Position numbers and translations under genes: made by a program. A stretch of 24,944 nucleotides of DNA from positions 1 to 24,944 of the forward strand of contig CAZQKV010000001.1 of NCBI GenBank assembly GCA_964593995.1, read 5' to 3'. The DNA is from Candidatus Woesearchaeota archaeon. GTDB lineage: Archaea; Nanobdellota; Nanobdellia; Pacearchaeales; GW2011-AR1. Shown in pieces: positions 2,780 to 24,944 of this stretch. Under the pieces are notes generated by a model that was not told the origin of the DNA, ran no database searches, and worked only from the letters and a program-made list of their open reading frames with translations. Within the stretch, counting starts at the first letter, position 1. Each line of letters starts with the position of its first letter.

Positions 2780-2807
2780 AGTTCGCACTATCTAGGTTAT
2801 GGAAGTC
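2780..2807 (+). other. Putative dif-like Xer binding site overlapping the xerA start codon
   Basis: AGTTCGCACTA-TCTAGG-TTATGGAAGTC has an 11-6-11 layout and matches 16/28 positions of E. coli dif (GGTGCGCATAA-TGTATA-TTATGTTAAAT) by manual comparison. Confidence 0.4.
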
Positions 2808-3617
2808 AGTGAATTTTTAAAAAGGGTTGAAACAGAAATTAAAATAAGTAAATTATCTGAATATACTTTAAGAAATTATATTGATTTTAATAAAGCATTA
2901 TTAAAGCACTCTAACAAAAATCCTGAGAAAATTGATTCTCAAGATGTTAAGTATTTTCTTGCAGACAAAATGTCTGAAAGAGCTCCTTCTTCTGTGATTT
3001 TATTTCTTGCATCTATTAGATTTGCATATTCTAATGTTCTTGAAAAAGATCCAACTGCAGGAGTTAAAAGACCAAAAAAAGAAGAAAAGATTCCCTCAGT
3101 GTTAACAAGAGAAGAAGTATTGAAATTAATTAATTCTGCCCAAACATTAAAAAGTAGTTTAATACTCCAGTTACTTTATTCTTCAGGATTGAGAGTTTCT
3201 GAGTTAGTTAACTTAAAACCAGTTAATTTAAATTTTAGTGAAAGTAGCGGGTGGGTAAGAGAAGGAAAAGGGAAAAAAGACAGGCTTTTTGTGATGTCAA
3301 AAAAACTTTCAAAAAAGCTTGAGAAATTTATAAGTAGGCACCCTAGTTGGGAATACGTGTTTTCAAAAGAAAAGCCTTTAACTACTAGGAACATACAAAA
3401 GATTGTACAAAAAATTGCAAATCTTATAGGAATTAAAAAAGAGGTTCATCCACACACATTTCGGCATAGTTTTGCTACTCACCTTCTTGATTCTGGGGTT
3501 GACCTCAGGAAGATTCAATTTCTTTTAGGGCACAGTTCAATTGCAACAACTCAGATTTATACGCATATTAGTTCTGATCAAGTAAAATCTATTAAAAATC
3601 CCTTAGATAATCTATAA
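2799..3617 (+). CDS. xerA: XerA/XerC-D family tyrosine recombinase
   Basis: SAM-like N-terminal domain. Full catalytic set: SGLRVSEL (R), GKGKKDR (K), HPHTFRHSFATHLL (HxxR), LLGHSSIATTQIY (H, Y). Confidence 0.93.
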   Translation: MEVSEFLKRVETEIKISKLSEYTLRNYIDFNKALLKHSNKNPEKIDSQDVKYFLADKMSERAPSSVILFLASIRFAYSNVLEKDPTAGVKRPKKEEKIPSVLTREEVLKLINSAQTLKSSLILQLLYSSGLRVSELVNLKPVNLNFSESSGWVREGKGKKDRLFVMSKKLSKKLEKFISRHPSWEYVFSKEKPLTTRNIQKIVQKIANLIGIKKEVHPHTFRHSFATHLLDSGVDLRKIQFLLGHSSIATTQIYTHISSDQVKSIKNPLDNL

Positions 3618-4989: not shown

Positions 4990-5787
4990 ATGGTGATTTA
5001 CTCTCATTCAAGACTTTCAACATTTGAACAATGCCCTTTAAAATTTAAGTTTAGATATATTGATAAAATTGAGCCAGATATAAAACAAACTATAGAAGGG
5101 TTTTTAGGAAACCGGGTTCATGATGTTTTAGAATGGATTTATAGTCAAGAAAATAAAGAGAAAACTCTTGATTTAGATGAAGTAATTCATTATTATATAA
5201 ACAACTGGAAAGAGAATTTTGGTTCAGAAATAAAAATAGTAAGACCTGAATATAATTTTGATTATTATTATGATCTTGGTATAAAATTCTTAATAAATTA
5301 TTTTATGAAAAATTCCCCTTTTAAAGATAATACAATTGCAACTGAAAAAAAAGTTATTGTAAAATTAGATAAAGAAGGAGAATATTTTTTGCAAGGCTAT
5401 ATAGATAGATTAGTTTATAACGAAGAATCAAGAATTTTTGAAATTCATGATTATAAAACCTCTGGTTTTTTAAAGTCTCAAGAAGAATTAGATAAAGACA
5501 GGCAATTAGCATTATACTCGATTGCTATTAGAGAAGATTTCCCACAAGCAATAGATGTTCATTTGATTTGGCACTTTCTGGCATTTAATCATAAAATAAT
5601 TTCAAAAAGAAGTTTAGAACAATTAGAAAAATTAAAAACAGAAATTATTAATTTAATTAAAAAAATAGAATCTGCAACAGAGTTTCCTGCAAATTCAAGT
5701 CTTCTATGTAACTGGTGTGAATTTAGAAGTAGTTGTTACCTTTTCAATGGAAACAACGAGAATCATATTGAACAAAGATCTGATTAA
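4990..5787 (+). CDS. PD-(D/E)XK nuclease (RecB/AddB/Cas4-like) with predicted 4Fe-4S staple
   Basis: YSHSRLSTFEQCP, LGNRVHDVLE, GYIDRL, IHDYKTS, QLALY, and C-terminal CNWCEFRSSC (1+3 Cys arrangement). Confidence 0.92.
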   Translation: MVIYSHSRLSTFEQCPLKFKFRYIDKIEPDIKQTIEGFLGNRVHDVLEWIYSQENKEKTLDLDEVIHYYINNWKENFGSEIKIVRPEYNFDYYYDLGIKFLINYFMKNSPFKDNTIATEKKVIVKLDKEGEYFLQGYIDRLVYNEESRIFEIHDYKTSGFLKSQEELDKDRQLALYSIAIREDFPQAIDVHLIWHFLAFNHKIISKRSLEQLEKLKTEIINLIKKIESATEFPANSSLLCNWCEFRSSCYLFNGNNENHIEQRSD

Positions 5788-5789
5788 CA

Positions 5790-7724
5790 ATGTGGAGTTT
5801 ATTTGAAAACAACCAAGAATTGAAACCCTTAATTTTTTCTAATGGAAAATCTCAAGAAGATGTAGTTAATGAAGTTGTTGAGTCTATAAAACAAGGTAAT
5901 AAAATTATTTTTATAAGAGGAATGTGCGGGACTGGAAAATCTGCAATTGCTTTAAACCTTGCAAAAGAATTAGGAAGGACTTCTATTGTAGTTCCAATAA
6001 AATCCTTGCAACAGCAATATATTAATGATTATTCTGATAAAAAATATGTTCTAAAGGATTTTGAGAAAATGAAAAATTTTGAGAAACTGAAAATAAAATC
6101 AATTGTAGGAATACATAATTTTAAATTTAAATATTTAAAAGAATCTAAAAATCCAATTGAAATTAAACAACTGCAAGAAAAAAATGCAAAATTAAGTGAT
6201 ATATTTTTAGGGGTAAGTTCAAAACTAAAGCCAAGTGAAGATAAGTCTTGTAATAATATTTTTCTTCCATGTAAAATAGAAATTAAAGAAAAAAATCTCC
6301 CAATGTTAAAAGACTATATTAAACAAAATCCAGACATCAAAATAACTGATTTTAATTCAGTATTAGATATAAAAAGAATGACAATAGCACCAATCTGTCC
6401 ATACTGGTCTCCAATTCTTCCAGAAGAATTTGAAATCAGGAAATTTAAAAATGCAAGAAAAATAAAGTACCTTGGATTAGATAATAGGAAATTTGTTTTT
6501 AATCAAAGAAAAAAAGGGTGTGGATTTTATGACCAGTATCTTGCTTATGAAGATGCTGATGTGATTATATTCAACAGCATGAAATATAAATTAGAGACTT
6601 TGATGAATCGAAAGCCAGCAACAGAAATTGAAATCATAGATGAGTGTGATGAATTTTTAGACAGCTTTGCAAATAAAGAAAAAATAAATCTTAACAGATT
6701 ATTATTTTCACTAAATCTTTTGTTTCCAGAAGATAGCATAGGGCAAGCAATAATAGATGATTTAATCGATATAACGAATACAATCAGATTGAAAAAATCA
6801 TATCAGGAAGGAGAAATTTTCCCTATTAAAGATACCTTAGTTGAAAAACTTCTAATTATTATTTTAAGAAATCAAGAATTTTTATATGGTGTAGAAGCAG
6901 ATGAAAATAATTATGTTTTTCATTTAGATGAAGTAGCTAAAACCTTCCAGGATTTTTTAGATGAAACTTTTTTTTCAATTGAAAAAAGAGAAAATGACAT
7001 CATAGTTCACTTAGTCACGACAAATCTTGCCAAAAAATTAAAGGAACTTATTGAAAAAAATAAAGTTTTAATTATGATGTCAGGAACCATACATTCAGAA
7101 TCTGTTTTAAGGGGAATTTTTGGATTAGAAGAATTTAAAATAATAGATGCAGAAACTAAACACCAAGGAGAATTAATTAAGTGCAGGCACGGATATGAAA
7201 TTGATTGTAAGTATACTAATTTTCAAAATAATCATATTTCAAGAGAGCAATATCTAAAGGCGTTATCAAAGTCGATAGCAAGTGCTAAACTCCCTATCCT
7301 AGTCCATATAACTGCTTTTTCAGACCTGCCAACAGATTATGAAAAAACCCAATTTGAGTTAGATAATTTACCGACAAGAGCAGAGCTTATGCATCAACAG
7401 GCTAGTGACCCTTTAAGTAAAAAGGTAGCAGATTTTAAGCAAGGCAAGATTCCAATCTTATTCACAACCCGCTGTAATCGCGGAGCAGATTTCCCAGGAG
7501 AAACTTGTAATAGTATTGTTATCACAAGATTTCCATACCCAAACATATCGGCTATTTTTTGGAAAATTTTAAAACAAAATAAGCCAGAACATTTTATGAG
7601 TTTTTATATTGATAAGGCAAGAAGAGATCTTCTTCAAAAGATTTATAGGGGATTAAGAAGTAAAGATGATGAAGTTTATCTGCTTTCTCCTGACACAAGA
7701 GTTTTAGATTTTAAAATTAATTAA
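5790..7724 (+). CDS. SF2 helicase, XPD/Rad3/DinG-like (divergent)
   Basis: Walker A GMCGTGKS, IIDECDEF, MMSGT, RGADFPG, motif VI variant QKIYRGLRSKDD. Cys residues lie between motifs Ia and II. Confidence 0.85.
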   Translation: MWSLFENNQELKPLIFSNGKSQEDVVNEVVESIKQGNKIIFIRGMCGTGKSAIALNLAKELGRTSIVVPIKSLQQQYINDYSDKKYVLKDFEKMKNFEKLKIKSIVGIHNFKFKYLKESKNPIEIKQLQEKNAKLSDIFLGVSSKLKPSEDKSCNNIFLPCKIEIKEKNLPMLKDYIKQNPDIKITDFNSVLDIKRMTIAPICPYWSPILPEEFEIRKFKNARKIKYLGLDNRKFVFNQRKKGCGFYDQYLAYEDADVIIFNSMKYKLETLMNRKPATEIEIIDECDEFLDSFANKEKINLNRLLFSLNLLFPEDSIGQAIIDDLIDITNTIRLKKSYQEGEIFPIKDTLVEKLLIIILRNQEFLYGVEADENNYVFHLDEVAKTFQDFLDETFFSIEKRENDIIVHLVTTNLAKKLKELIEKNKVLIMMSGTIHSESVLRGIFGLEEFKIIDAETKHQGELIKCRHGYEIDCKYTNFQNNHISREQYLKALSKSIASAKLPILVHITAFSDLPTDYEKTQFELDNLPTRAELMHQQASDPLSKKVADFKQGKIPILFTTRCNRGADFPGETCNSIVITRFPYPNISAIFWKILKQNKPEHFMSFYIDKARRDLLQKIYRGLRSKDDEVYLLSPDTRVLDFKIN

Positions 7725-8539: not shown

Positions 8540-9364
8540 ATGAAAAGGGGTAAATTAAATAAAAATATTTCTTTAATAATTGTAATTAGTGTGGTATTAT
8601 TAACTGCTGTTGCAATGTATGCTCTTTTCAAGCCTTCTAAAGAGCTTACTAAACAAGAACTTCTAGATATGATTGAACAAGGAGAATTAGCAACAACTAC
8701 TTATTCTACTGGGGGGTCTGGAGATATTCTTTCTTGTAGTGCTAATCACATAACCTGGACTACCTCCCCTTTTTTGTATCATATTATAACTGGAATGCAA
8801 AAAATCAAAAATGTCTGCCCTCCTTGTTTTGGAGAAGAAGTAGAAGTTTATGAAGTTACTTTTCCAAATCCGCTTATGGGGGATAATTTTTATATAACAG
8901 CTTGTGATGAACCTGAAAATGGTTCTGATGATTATGGTTCTGATGCATATGCCTGTTATGAAGCAGATTTCGCGGATTTGCGTCCTGAAGCAACTGTATG
9001 TCATCAGTGTGATGATATTGGAATTACTATTGCTAATGGGAGTGATACTGTAACAGAAGTTGTTTTTGCTGTAGATATTAAGCAAAGAACTAATCCTACA
9101 GATTCTGATTTTTGGGCACTTGATTTTCAATCTGCTTGTAATGATAATCCTCATTGTCCAATAAATGAAGATTGTCCTGGAGACACAGATGGAAATGGAA
9201 TTGTAAATATAGATGATCAAACAAATGTAATAGATCACTGGTTAGAACAACCTTGTCCTGCTAAAGAAGGATGTTGTGGTGGTGCAGATCTAAATGGCGA
9301 CGGAATTGTTAATATGGCTGATTTTGCACTTGTTACCGGAAACCCAGGATTTTGTACAAGCTGA
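8540..9364 (+). CDS. Cys-rich surface protein with N-terminal anchor and C-terminal dockerin-like (double EF-hand) domain
   Basis: N-terminal TM helix; duplicated Ca-binding loops GDTDGNGIVNIDD and ADLNGDGIVNMADF. Confidence 0.85.
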   Translation: MKRGKLNKNISLIIVISVVLLTAVAMYALFKPSKELTKQELLDMIEQGELATTTYSTGGSGDILSCSANHITWTTSPFLYHIITGMQKIKNVCPPCFGEEVEVYEVTFPNPLMGDNFYITACDEPENGSDDYGSDAYACYEADFADLRPEATVCHQCDDIGITIANGSDTVTEVVFAVDIKQRTNPTDSDFWALDFQSACNDNPHCPINEDCPGDTDGNGIVNIDDQTNVIDHWLEQPCPAKEGCCGGADLNGDGIVNMADFALVTGNPGFCTS

Positions 9365-9417: not shown

Positions 9418-10353
9418 ATGAAAAATGAGGGGTTAAAAAAGAATATTTCTTTAGTAATTGTAATTAGTGTGATATTATTAAGTTCTATTGCAATGTATTC
9501 TCTTTTTAGGTCTCCTAAGGAACCTACTAAACAAGACCTTTTAAACATACTTAAGGAAAAAGGAGAATTAGGAACTTCAACTGGCTACGCAAGTTCTAGC
9601 GGGGCCTGGTGTGGTGGAGCAGATATTAATAAAGATGGAAAAGTTGATATGAGTGATTTTGATATTCTTGCAGATAATTGGTTAAAAGATGATTGTGCAG
9701 AAGAAAATAATTGGTGTGATGGGGCAGATATTGATAAAGATGGTATTGTTAATATGGTTGATTATTCAATTTTTGCAGACAATTGGTTAAGACAAGATTG
9801 TGCTGATGGCTATTGTGAAGATGGGACTTTAATTGGGGAGTGTTCAAGTCTTAATCCTCCATTATATTGTGAAGGTGAAGGAAGTGGGGATTATGGAAGT
9901 GGTGATAGTGGCGGAGGCTCAGGAGACTTAATATTTGATTTATCTAAATGTGGAGCAGATGCAGGAAAATGCTGTGAGTCTAATAAAAATCCTGCACAAT
10001 TTGCAACATATCTTGCATTAAATCTCCCGCCTTCAGAAAGTTGTAGCAATGCACATACCTATTTTGATGAAGCAACTATCGGTGGCTGGCTTGATACTTC
10101 TTTTTTTGAAACTCAGGGAATGGCGCAAGTTTCAGGAGGTTATCCAACAAGAGTTAAATGTTCAAGTAACTCTTTTGTTGTAAAGTCAGGTAGTGGGGTC
10201 AGATATAAACCAACCCCTTGTATTTTTGTTCCTGCTTCCCTTTCTAACCCACAACAACAAGTAGCGATTTTAGATTGGAGTCACAAGTCATATGCTTATT
10301 GTAGTTATACTAATGGAAACAGTGTTGAAGCAGTAGAAGTTGAATTACCATAA
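9418..10353 (+). CDS. Cys-rich surface protein with paralogous anchor, dockerin-like domain near the N-terminus and a Gly/Ser linker
   Basis: Leader homologous to the 8540 protein. Ca loops ADINKDGKVDMSDF and ADIDKDGIVNMVDY; linker GEGSGDYGSGDSGGGSGD. Confidence 0.85.
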   Translation: MKNEGLKKNISLVIVISVILLSSIAMYSLFRSPKEPTKQDLLNILKEKGELGTSTGYASSSGAWCGGADINKDGKVDMSDFDILADNWLKDDCAEENNWCDGADIDKDGIVNMVDYSIFADNWLRQDCADGYCEDGTLIGECSSLNPPLYCEGEGSGDYGSGDSGGGSGDLIFDLSKCGADAGKCCESNKNPAQFATYLALNLPPSESCSNAHTYFDEATIGGWLDTSFFETQGMAQVSGGYPTRVKCSSNSFVVKSGSGVRYKPTPCIFVPASLSNPQQQVAILDWSHKSYAYCSYTNGNSVEAVEVELP

Positions 10354-11225: not shown

Positions 11226-11582
11226 TTAGATTATTTTAACGCCTTTTAATTTTACATTATCTTTGATTTCTTTTTGTATTGTTTTTATTTCACAACTTGC
11301 TTTTTTTAATTTCTCTTTTGCAGATTCTGAAAAACTTAAAGCAGAAATCTTTATTTTCTTTTCAATATTACCTTCTCCTAAAACTTTCCCAACAACCATA
11401 ATATTATTTTCTTTTAACTCATTTAGTTTGTTTAGGTTAATTTTTATCTGTTGTTTTGTAGGTTTTGCTAATTCTTTTGCTAAGTCTAATAAGTTATTTT
11501 TTTTAGCAATAAAGATAGTTTCAACTAAATTGGGATTTGTTTTTCTTTTCATTTTTTTATCAATTTGTGTTTTGCTTATCAT
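11226..11582 (-). CDS. rpl18e: 50S ribosomal protein eL18
   Basis: Motifs KTNPNL, INLNKL, VVGKVLGEG, ALSFSESAKEKL; canonical operon position. Confidence 0.93.
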   Translation of the reverse strand: MISKTQIDKKMKRKTNPNLVETIFIAKKNNLLDLAKELAKPTKQQIKINLNKLNELKENNIMVVGKVLGEGNIEKKIKISALSFSESAKEKLKKASCEIKTIQKEIKDNVKLKGVKII

Positions 11583-11611: not shown

Positions 11612-11695
11612 TGCGGAGAAGAGGATTTGAACCCCTGTAGGCACTAAGCCACGTGGACCTTAACCACGCCCGTTTGACCGCTCCGGCATCTCCGC
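11612..11695 (-). tRNA. tRNA-Leu, anticodon AAG (A34); CCA not encoded
   Basis: GCGGAGA/TCTCCGC acceptor stem with discriminator A. Anticodon arm CGTGG-TTAAGGT-CCACG, long variable arm, T arm AGGGG-TTCAAAT-CCTCT. Confidence 0.95.
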
Positions 11696-11733: not shown

Positions 11734-12399
11734 TTATTTAATAGCTTTGTCAAGTTTTTCTAGGTTTTTATCTAAAACTTCAGTACTCTTTTGAAATATC
11801 TCTTTGACTTCTATTTGCCCCCAAGATTCTATATTAAATTTTAACTGGTTTATTTTACTTAGCTTTTTAATCTTATCCATATCTTCTTGAGAAATCCCCT
11901 TTTGTTCTAATTCTTTTTCATCATAACTAATTTCTCCAGAATCATTAATATTCACAAAATCTATTGTTTCTGGATCTAGATTGTGTTTATAATAAATTAA
12001 TCCAGGAGAATACTTAACATGATCAATTCCCAAACCTAATTTTGCATTCGCAAGAATTTCAATTTCCTGGTCTTCGTCTAAAATAGTTATGGGAAGTTTA
12101 TATTGTGTGCCAACACTTGGAGAAATGTCACTTGAATAAACTGTGCACGGGCCTTTTGCTTTTATTTTAAATTTAGTTTCTTTACCTGTTTTAGTAGTCT
12201 TTATTGGTATTAATCCAAGACGATGTGCAATTATTTCATCATATAATGCAGAATCATTTTTAAAAATTTCAACTTCATCAATGGCCATTATTGGAATCTC
12301 AAGTACAGATCTTCGTATGGCATTAGCTAAACTAATTTGCATGTCTGTTGTAAAACTTAATTTTTGTTTTTCTTTATTATAATCTTGTATTTGTATCAT
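11734..12399 (-). CDS. rpoD: DNA-directed RNA polymerase subunit D (Rpo3)
   Basis: Motifs LANAIRRSVLEIPIMAIDEVEI, NDSALYDEIIAHRLGLIP. Confidence 0.96.
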   Translation of the reverse strand: MIQIQDYNKEKQKLSFTTDMQISLANAIRRSVLEIPIMAIDEVEIFKNDSALYDEIIAHRLGLIPIKTTKTGKETKFKIKAKGPCTVYSSDISPSVGTQYKLPITILDEDQEIEILANAKLGLGIDHVKYSPGLIYYKHNLDPETIDFVNINDSGEISYDEKELEQKGISQEDMDKIKKLSKINQLKFNIESWGQIEVKEIFQKSTEVLDKNLEKLDKAIK

Positions 12400-19919: not shown

Positions 19920-20915
19920 TCAAAACCCCTTCATTAATTTTTCAATTTTTTCCCAGCTTTTTATTGTGTTAAGTTTTCTTCTTAATTTACTGCTTCCTTG
20001 CAAACCTTTTGTAAATTCTTGGGCCTTTAATTTAGAATCTTTTATAGAAAATATTTTGAATTTTTTTGCAAGCGTAATATATTCAAAATAATCATCAATT
20101 TTTTGCTTTTTTGTCTGAAGAACCTGCTTTCCTGTTTCAAGCCATTTATTTATCTGTTTGAAAATAAATGGGTTGCCAATTGCAGCTCTCCCAATCATAA
20201 CATAATCACAATTAGTTTGTTCAAGCATTTGTTTTGCATCTTCTCCATTCCAAACATCCCCGTTTCCAATAACAGGGATTTTAATATTTTGTTTGATTTT
20301 TTTGATTATGCTCCAATCAGCTTTTCCAGAATAACCTTGCTCAACGCTTCTCGCGTGAACAGTGATTGCAGAAGCTCCTGCTTTTTCACAAATTTTTGCA
20401 ATTTCCAGAGAATCATCTGCATTACTTTTATTAAAACCAGTTCTTATTTTTACAGTAAGTGGAATCTTAATTGATTTACTTGCTTTTTTTACAATTTCCG
20501 CAATCTTATTTTTTCGCTTTAGTAAAGCCCCGCCAGAACCTTGCTGCATTATTCTTTTTGAAGGACAACCAATATTAAAGTCAATTATATCAAATTCTTC
20601 TTCTAAAATTTGGGCTGCTTTGATAATTAGTTCTGTATTTTGCCCAAATAATTGTGTAGCAACAGGCTTTTCTTTTTTATTTGTGATGGCAGATTTAAGT
20701 GAAGATTTATTTCCTCTTGAAATTGCATTTGCAGAAAGTAGCTCTGTGCTTACCAGCCCTGCACCATATTTTTTGCACATAATCCTAAATGCAATATTTG
20801 TAATATCATGCATTGGTGCAAGAATTATTTTTGATTTTAACTTTAAAAATTTATTTTGTTTTTTTGAAGTCCCAGAAATTTTTAATTTCTGAGGTTTTGG
20901 AAAATCTTTTGCCAT
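19920..20915 (-). CDS. dusB: tRNA-dihydrouridine synthase (DusB-like)
   Basis: Motifs ILAPM, QLFG, DFNIGCPS (catalytic Cys), TVKIR, ITVHAR, IGNGDV, VMIGRAAIGNP. The exact start is uncertain. Confidence 0.92.
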   Translation of the reverse strand: MAKDFPKPQKLKISGTSKKQNKFLKLKSKIILAPMHDITNIAFRIMCKKYGAGLVSTELLSANAISRGNKSSLKSAITNKKEKPVATQLFGQNTELIIKAAQILEEEFDIIDFNIGCPSKRIMQQGSGGALLKRKNKIAEIVKKASKSIKIPLTVKIRTGFNKSNADDSLEIAKICEKAGASAITVHARSVEQGYSGKADWSIIKKIKQNIKIPVIGNGDVWNGEDAKQMLEQTNCDYVMIGRAAIGNPFIFKQINKWLETGKQVLQTKKQKIDDYFEYITLAKKFKIFSIKDSKLKAQEFTKGLQGSSKLRRKLNTIKSWEKIEKLMKGF

Positions 20916-22431: not shown

Positions 22432-22547
22432 TGAAGACAACTTATGAGCTTCGCTTCATTTCTGAAACTAACACAAATAACATAGCAAGCTTAACTTCTG
22501 TGTTCGGGATGGGAACAGGTGTTTCCAAGCTATTATGGTCGTCTTCA
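22432..22547 (-). rRNA. 5S rRNA (stand-alone)
   Basis: Terminal helix TGAAGAC/GTCTTCA; conserved GACCATA and ACACCTGTTCCCATCCCGAACACAGAAGTTAAG. Confidence 0.93.
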
Positions 22548-22656
22548 ATTATACCTAAAATTGTGTATTTATAAAGCTTTTTATATGGTTAATTATTAGG
22601 ATTTTTATCTCTTATAAAAATCTTAGAGGGTTGATAAGGGATATTTCCTTTATTAT

Positions 22657-22740
22657 GCAGAGGTAGCAAAGCGGTCAAATGCGCAAGACTCAAGATCTTG
22701 TGGCTTAGTGCCTTCAGGGGTTCGAATCCTCTCCTCTGCA
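22657..22740 (+). tRNA. tRNA-Leu, anticodon CAA; CCA not encoded
   Basis: GCAGAGG/CCTCTGC acceptor; CAAGA-CTCAAGA-TCTTG anticodon arm; long variable arm. Confidence 0.97.
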
Positions 22741-22803
22741 TTATATTAATTTTTTAAAGTTAGAATTGCAAAGTTTTATAAGTCATTAACTATCTGTTTT
22801 TTT

Positions 22804-24656: not shown

Positions 24657-24792
24657 AATATTTAACAATAAAGTTTCTTTATAAGTTTTTATATAAATTC
24701 TAACTTTAATATTCAGGAGAATAACTTTAAAATTTAATGTGGCTTAAGTGCTATAACAGGTTTTTTAAAGCAATTTAGTGTATAATTTTTAT

Positions 24793-24867
24793 GCCCTGGT
24801 AGCTCAATTTGGATAGAGTGCCACCCTCCTAAGGTGGAAGTTGCAGGTTCAAGTCCTGCCCAGGGCA
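24793..24867 (+). tRNA. tRNA-Arg, anticodon CCT; CCA not encoded
   Basis: GCCCTGG/CCAGGGC acceptor; CCACC-CTCCTAA-GGTGG anticodon arm; GCAGG-TTCAAGT-CCTGC T arm. Confidence 0.97.
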
Positions 24868-24944
24868 TGATATTTATATAAGTCTCATAGGTTCTGTAGA
24901 AAGTTTCTTTAATAAAAGCCACCTCTAATTTACAACTAAAAGAA

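Follow-up and report, generated by a model that had tools for sequence, protein, structure and literature searches.

The central feature of the DNA analyzed here is a tRNA-Leu gene with the anticodon AAG, and an adenosine at wobble position 34 (A34) of this tRNA is the normal state across a deeply diverged group of DPANN archaea with small, AT-rich genomes, the Pacearchaeota and their relatives. The gene lies at 11612..11695 on the minus strand of a 24,944-nucleotide window, the whole stretch that was analyzed, from contig CAZQKV010000001.1 of a Candidatus Woesearchaeota archaeon, and is delimited by ARAGORN, by Rfam family RF00005 and by alignment with 60 orthologs. Judged from the sequence, the A34 is authentic and the archaeal tRNA-Leu that carries it is functional.

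The anticodon can be read directly on the minus strand, with A34 at 11661, A35 at 11660 and G36 at 11659. It sits within an anticodon arm spanning 11652..11668 (minus strand; direct reading and alignment with relatives), in which the stem strands CGTGG (11668–11664) and CCACG (11656–11652) enclose the loop UUAAGGU (11663–11657). The plus strand at 11657–11663 is ACCTTAA, the reverse complement of which is TTAAGGT, and the loop is of the standard 7 nt, with the order U32 U33 A34 A35 G36 G37 U38. The full gene reads GCGGAGA-UG-CCG-GAGCGGUCAAA-CGG-G-CGUGG-UUAAGGU-CCACG-UGGCUUAGUGCCUAC-AGGGG-UUCAAAU-CCUCU-UCUCCGC-A, an 84-nt type II tRNA with a long variable arm and an A73 discriminator, encoding neither a CCA end nor an intron. 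The AAG anticodon, the A34 at 11661 and the intact stems given in the preliminary description of this DNA are thus exact by direct reading, ARAGORN and Rfam.

ARAGORN reports three tRNAs in the window, including tRNA-Leu(aag) at 11612..11695 (−), and RF00005 matches 11612–11695 end to end (model positions 1–71), scoring 48.2 bits where the gathering threshold is 29. This match comes from a search of the sub-region; the whole-window gathering pass skipped the gene, which we take to be an effect of the speed filter. The cloverleaf comprises a 7-bp acceptor stem, a 3-bp D stem and 5-bp anticodon and T stems, and its loops show the 7-nt anticodon loop, U33, a purine at position 37 and the GTTCRAA T loop of the family. 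The long variable arm, A73 and an anticodon of the NAG/NAA type are sequence features of leucine identity, from which charging by LeuRS is predicted. In the alignment of orthologs, the 15-nt variable region UGGCUUAGUGCCUAC contains a 3-bp stem that covaries, and A73 does not vary. The variable-arm sequence UGGCUUAGUGCCU is common to the Leu-CAA and Leu-AAG genes of the window.

The gene is held between rpoD, encoding RNA polymerase subunit D (11734..12399, minus strand; Pfam PF01193 and PF01000), at the upstream edge of the slot, and rpl18e (11226..11582, minus strand; PF00828 and PF17135) at its downstream edge. Pfam assignments give the order of the cluster as S13-S4-S11-RpoD-tRNA-L18e-L13-S9, and these neighbors, together with the loci of relatives, bear out the earlier proposal that the rpoD–rpl18e interval is a conserved slot for tRNA-Leu. 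The window has a GC content of 29%, ranging from 25 to 35% throughout, and the best named homologs of its RpoD are from “Candidatus Pacearchaeota.”

Elsewhere in the window are a 5S rRNA (22432–22546, minus strand), tRNA-Leu(CAA) (22656–22741, plus strand) and tRNA-Arg(CCU) (24792–24868, plus strand), a trio that many relatives also have in the vicinity of rpoD (L029, L042, L050 and L054 among them). A dihydrouridine synthase (Dus; 19920–20915, minus strand; PF01207, 264 bits), a tRNA-modification enzyme here present in a reduced DPANN genome, adjoins an ABC transporter operon. Three open reading frames, at 1117–2259 (−), 8540–9364 (+) and 9418–10353 (+), encode apparent secreted or surface proteins, one with zinc ribbon, staphylococcal-nuclease and lamin-tail domains and two with dockerin domains; as a predicted domain set, this is in line with nucleic-acid scavenging by an episymbiont.

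An identical tRNA with AAG, together with an identical L18e, is present on an independent metagenome contig of 2472 bp (L001, JGI 3300031698). We sampled the rpoD neighborhoods of 80 species-representative genomes, picked by the similarity of their RpoD to that of the window (41–73% identical). Leu-AAG occurs at 54 of the 80 species loci, GAG at 10 and UAG at 2, so that the suggestion that relatives might all carry GAG fails, AAG being in the majority. ARAGORN called 50 of the 54 AAG genes, and the remaining four, which contain introns, were identified by eye or by Rfam. The other 14 loci have no CUN tRNA within the stretch examined, several of these contigs stopping just after rpoD. An AAG gene immediately following rpoD, and on its strand, is found in 47 sources, namely the window and 46 species loci. 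Both AAG and GAG occur beside rpoD/rpl18e, and no examined locus has both; at the loci examined in the 80 genomes and in metagenome stretches, A34 is encoded without a G34 isoacceptor for the same box.

The four intron-containing AAG genes of the slot (L051, 4902–4999; L061, 10802–10898; L052, 10777–10875; L074, 4158–4277) carry introns of ∼12–40 nt at or beside the canonical 37/38 site. ARAGORN labels those of L051 and L061 “Pro-agg”/“aagg” and misses those of L052 and L074, which were recovered by an Rfam rescan and read by eye. Neither ARAGORN nor Rfam finds a tRNA between rpoD and rpl18e in L029, L031, L049, L065, L077 and L078, their slot tRNA having been lost or relocated, and in L046, L054, L064 and L066 the AAG gene is elsewhere or on the opposite strand. 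Two entries with an archaeal rpoD-tRNA-Leu(AAG)-rpl18e cluster are titled “Candidatus Dojkabacteria bacterium” (L009, JAFCCB010000007.1) and “bacterium” (L005, JAUUWR010000035.1); these bins are probably mislabeled or mixed. The viral contigs scanned for the tRNA pattern gave no matches.

We also scanned metagenomes with a pattern in which the variable arm and T arm of the clade were fixed and position 34 was left free, taking the first 120 stretches. The anticodons among the matches listed in these 120 stretches are UAG in 55 genes, AAG in 43, GAG in 18 and CAG in 5. AAG differs from the canonical archaeal GAG by a single G-to-A change, and the evidence considered here is assembled sequence rather than reads; the A at 11661 could on this account be a sequencing or assembly error, or the gene a decaying pseudogene, with GAG as the real functional anticodon. 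An error is ruled out by the same A34 in the independent contig L001 and by its breadth, across more than half of the species representatives (from many studies and assemblers) and the 43 metagenome contigs with AAG. A pseudogene is excluded by covariation and by breadth across species, and we regard this explanation, in either form, as vanishingly unlikely.

The covariation is evident in an alignment of 61 slot tRNAs (the window and 60 orthologs), which is without any gap. Standard pairs fill 99.7% of 1357 stem cells, as against 78.5% in shuffled controls and 44–52% with partners slid, and both-sided, compensatory changes are found in 20 of the 23 pairs. Within the anticodon stem, all 5 pairs covary and pairing is 100% across relatives, and position 34 remains A while each of these pairs turns over. 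That the anticodon stem has been repeatedly rewritten around a constant A34 argues for selection and not decay. Separately, position 32 is A in 4 of 10 GAG variants (L004, L033, L036 and L070; alignment column 33), and all AAG variants have U32 or C32. As far as the alignment indicates, changes at positions 32 and 34 may be coupled, tuning the strength of the anticodon loop.

The history of position 34 was traced on a neighbor-joining tree of RpoD with Fitch parsimony. Every major branch of this tree includes AAG; GAG turns up at several unconnected points and UAG at two, in slot variants (L017 and L063) whose backbone is common to their AAG neighbors. The Fitch root state of the sample is AAG, with a minimum of ∼10 changes (about 8 A-to-G and 2 A-to-U), a count that is approximate for a single-protein tree. 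Median GC at third codon positions is 0.20 in AAG genomes versus 0.29 in GAG genomes (Mann-Whitney p = 0.0008, with kinship ignored). Among the metagenome matches listed, AAG spans RpoD identities of 31–67%, and contigs with RpoD 29–46% identical that are richer in GC (mean 0.43) carry GAG beside rpoD. The simplest reading is a history in three steps, in which G34 would be the older archaeal state of the rpoD–rpl18e slot, a point change in place, close to where the Pacearchaeota-type radiation begins, would have produced A34, and A34 would have reverted to G34 several times where GC rose.

Two metagenome contigs, L188 (4220 bp, GC 0.52) and L094 (GC 0.41), carry Leu-AAG beside a distant RpoD (31–32% identity) and are not AT-rich. 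A34 is thus not strictly bound to very low GC, and it may reach beyond the Pacearchaeota-type clade.

We next consider how the CUN codons are read. The count of CUN codons reported previously for the integrase/XerA-like gene at 2799–3617 is exact (11 CTT, 2 CTC, 1 CTA and 0 CTG), and the long open reading frames of the window together contain 137 CTT, 11 CTC, 42 CTA and 14 CTG. In the long open reading frames of the AAG genomes, CUN usage is.586 CUU,.088 CUC,.216 CUA and.110 CUG. CUA and CUG thus make up 32% of CUN codons, about a third, and need some reader, either a U34 or C34 tRNA or an unusually permissive A34. The latter is the basis of a proposal in which superwobble lets one A34 tRNA serve the entire CUN box without any other CUN tRNA, and the AAG loci, which show no further CUN tRNA inside 10 kb of rpoD, are in keeping with it. 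However, Leu-UAG with the same clade-specific backbone is at least as common as AAG among the metagenome matches listed, and it resides at a different locus. Fifty-three of the 55 UAG genes have neither rpoD nor L18e nearby, and most AAG and GAG genes among the matches listed have one or both. The UAG genes instead adjoin Cys-GCA, Arg-UCU, Val-GAC or Gly-UCC tRNAs, in contigs that are equally AT-rich.

One of these UAG genes (L139) is on a contig of 647,740 bp (Ga0265297_10000027), equal in size to an AAG-bearing Pacearchaeota scaffold (L034, NCBI JBAZJQ010000001.1, also 647,740 bp). This equality of size is the one ground on which we infer that the two are a single scaffold deposited twice; the pieces of L034 and L139 that were compared have no sequence overlap. 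With a separate Leu-UAG gene at another locus, four-way wobble by A34 is unneeded, and we consider superwobble by a lone A34 tRNA highly improbable. Wide-wobble decoding, one of the two strategies put forward in the preliminary description, is consequently not required. The lineage has an AAG and UAG pair that replaces the usual GAG and UAG. A four-fold-box A34 tRNA, a U34 isoacceptor in the lineage and a reduced, AT-rich genome are the features of the Mycoplasma Thr-AGU type, and all three are found here, the pairing of the two tRNAs within the same genome being presumed.

Many of the pattern-matched tRNA-Leu genes are irregular. On the 5′ side, several are tRNA-like only from about position 30 onward (L093, L107, L110, L119, L148, L157, L185 and L193), and others show a break in the T loop after GGTTCGAA, on the 3′ side (L125, L129, L160, L188, L189 and L196). 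All of these are UAG genes except L185 (CAG) and L188 (AAG), and ARAGORN misses most of them. By their sequence, they look like genes with non-canonical introns or split genes.

The explanation that we favor as a whole, with moderate confidence, is an in-place change from G34 to A34 in a CUN tRNA, with A34 undeaminated, a UAG partner and a switch driven by AT content. In this scheme, A34 would pair with the dominant CUU codon (59% of CUN) by Watson-Crick A:U pairing and not G:U wobble, tRNA-Leu(UAG) would decode CUA and CUG, and the rare CUC (9% of CUN) would be read through weaker A34:C pairing and/or by the U34 tRNA. A34 would most likely not be deaminated, paralleling the Thr-AGU tRNA of Mycoplasma and the Mollicutes without TadA. 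AT mutation pressure and a relaxed need to read CUC would be the drivers of the switch.

On the state of A34 itself, we lean toward its being left unmodified in preference to its conversion to inosine. No archaeal A34 deaminase is known, the genomes of this clade are strongly reduced and rich in AT, as are those of the Mollicutes in which unmodified A34 tRNAs work (PMC3711424), and repeated toggling between A and G is easier without a dedicated enzyme. In addition, unmodified four-fold-box ANN tRNAs are largely neutral in E. coli (bioRxiv 10.64898/2026.05.15.725136), and under the expanded wobble rules (summarized in PMC11066159) unmodified A34 favors U as its partner, accepts C to a modest degree and pairs weakly with A or G. 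Neither tblastn with E. coli TadA as the query nor a motif scan for H[AV]E...PCxxC revealed a TadA-like gene in the window and 200 related loci (80 genome and 120 metagenome loci), which amount to 1.85 Mb, or ∼2% per genome, and Pfam found no deaminase among the sizeable open reading frames of the window. The sole open reading frame with a CDA fold in the 1.85 Mb (HAE...PCIPC; L153, ∼5552–6150, plus strand) directly follows a tRNA-Leu(UAG), and its motifs suggest a dCMP deaminase and not TadA.

Several observations count against an unmodified A34. First, AT pressure alone should flip other G34 tRNAs as well, and none is seen flipped; the other four-box tRNAs in the same loci (Val-GAC, Ser-GGA and Gly-GCC) retain G34. 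Second, in the bacterial lineages in which it was tested (Oenococcus and Streptococcus), Leu-AAG is converted to inosine by TadA. Third, CUC is not specifically avoided in AAG genomes. The ratio CUC/(CUU+CUC) is 0.131 in AAG genomes versus 0.244 in GAG genomes, but the same ratio for Val, whose tRNA keeps G34, shifts in parallel (0.109 versus 0.225). A pooled binomial comparison gave an apparent codon-usage signature of A34, with fewer CUC codons (odds ratio ∼0.66). This is not robust, as a per-genome test of Leu-specific CUC avoidance in AAG genomes is null (p = 0.31) and Val differs more between the two groups. CUC is thus seemingly not hard to read.

These observations bear on the alternative in which A34 is converted to inosine by a deaminase so far unrecognized in archaea, either a transferred bacterial TadA or a diverged enzyme of the CDA fold. 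The mature IAG anticodon would then decode CUU, CUC and CUA, leaving CUG to tRNA-Leu(UAG), and the lack of specific CUC avoidance is what would be expected if C is well read. Wherever Leu-AAG tRNAs of bacteria or eukaryotes have been examined by experiment, they carry I34; A34 is here confined to Leu, the commonest non-Arg substrate of TadA/ADAT, and it has been kept over deep divergence. DPANN archaea have also acquired bacterial wobble-modification genes before, having taken up the position-34 pathway for queuosine (PMC8204110), which makes acquisition of TadA plausible. Against this, no A34-specific deaminase has been reported in archaea, the lineage DNA searched contains no TadA-like gene, albeit in a small sample, and Pacearchaeota-type genomes are strongly reduced. 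The changes of A to G and A to U within the clade would also be easier without an enzyme tied to a single substrate. Considered together, these points make conversion to inosine rather unlikely. The corresponding claim about the organisms, that Pacearchaeota-type DPANN possess a wobble adenosine-to-inosine deaminase (an acquired TadA or an unrecognized archaeal enzyme), we likewise hold to be doubtful, and a shade more so. If it is true, I34 decoding would be on record in archaea for the first time, as an independent natural move toward the expanded use of inosine otherwise typical of eukaryotes.

Papers up to 2026 describe archaea as lacking both ANN tRNAs and TadA/ADAT. In surveys of 167–220 archaeal genomes, ANN tRNAs are essentially absent, and they account for 3 of 10,517 archaeal tRNAs in GtRNAdb. 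The rule that archaea lack A34, on which the preliminary description relied, is contradicted by the A34 reported here; as a finding, however, it is not fully unprecedented, since in Ferroplasma acidarmanus Leu-AAG has replaced GAG (PMC6000648), the only comparable archaeal case that we found. That survey covered genomes other than DPANN metagenome-assembled ones. In the full-text literature on DPANN, Pacearchaeota, Woesearchaeota and Nanoarchaeota, we found no description of an A34, inosine or TadA feature.

The F. acidarmanus fer1 tRNA resembles the present one in being an archaeal tRNA-Leu in which AAG stands for GAG by point substitution, with GAG absent from that genome. It differs in being a one-species event among 167 genomes, the close relatives all having GAG (PMC6000648). 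In contrast, AAG is here the majority and the reconstructed ancestral state, in dozens of species and down to 41% RpoD identity. The closest bacterial likeness is in the Lactobacillales (Oenococcus, Leuconostoc, Streptococcus, Lactococcus and Lactobacillus), where Leu-AAG likewise replaces Leu-GAG clade-wide by a G34A change, in AT-rich genomes that prefer U-ending codons and with the Leu box the most prone (bioRxiv 10.64898/2026.05.15.725136, PMC8007984). These bacteria, however, already have TadA for tRNA-Arg(ACG), and I34 has been shown in Oenococcus and Streptococcus, whereas the host here belongs to a domain for which no A34 deaminase is known, and the 1.85 Mb examined yielded none.

The tRNA-Thr(AGU) of Mycoplasma and the TadA-less Mollicutes with tRNA-Arg(ACG) (PMC3711424) also have small, AT-rich, symbiont-type genomes and an A34 tRNA in a four-fold box beside a U34 partner, a model that needs no deaminase. 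The domain and the codon box are different, and non-modification has been shown or argued there, whereas here we infer it. Eukaryotes, with tRNA-Leu(IAG) made by ADAT2/ADAT3, similarly encode Leu-AAG instead of Leu-GAG, with Leu-UAG as its partner, but they convert eight A34 tRNAs; in the present loci, A34 is found only on Leu, and Val, Ser and Gly keep G34.

In reviews and surveys up to 2026, the lack of ANN tRNAs and of an A34 deaminase in Archaea stands as a domain-level rule, and it has been used in arguments on the origin of the eukaryotic inosine system and on universal selection against A34. An archaeal clade with tRNA-Leu(AAG) as its normal decoder of CUY codons over deep divergence breaks this rule. 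What is new is a known type of tRNA in a domain thought to be without it, apparently without the usual enzyme. For annotation pipelines applied to DPANN genomes and for tRNA-based checks of completeness and quality, Leu-AAG is not to be treated as an error. Should the mature tRNA carry inosine at position 34, archaea would have a wobble deaminase that is so far undescribed. Should A34 stay unmodified, no natural case of such an adenosine serving as a standard cytoplasmic decoder would be larger than this clade, in which the reasons for the avoidance of A34 elsewhere could then be studied.
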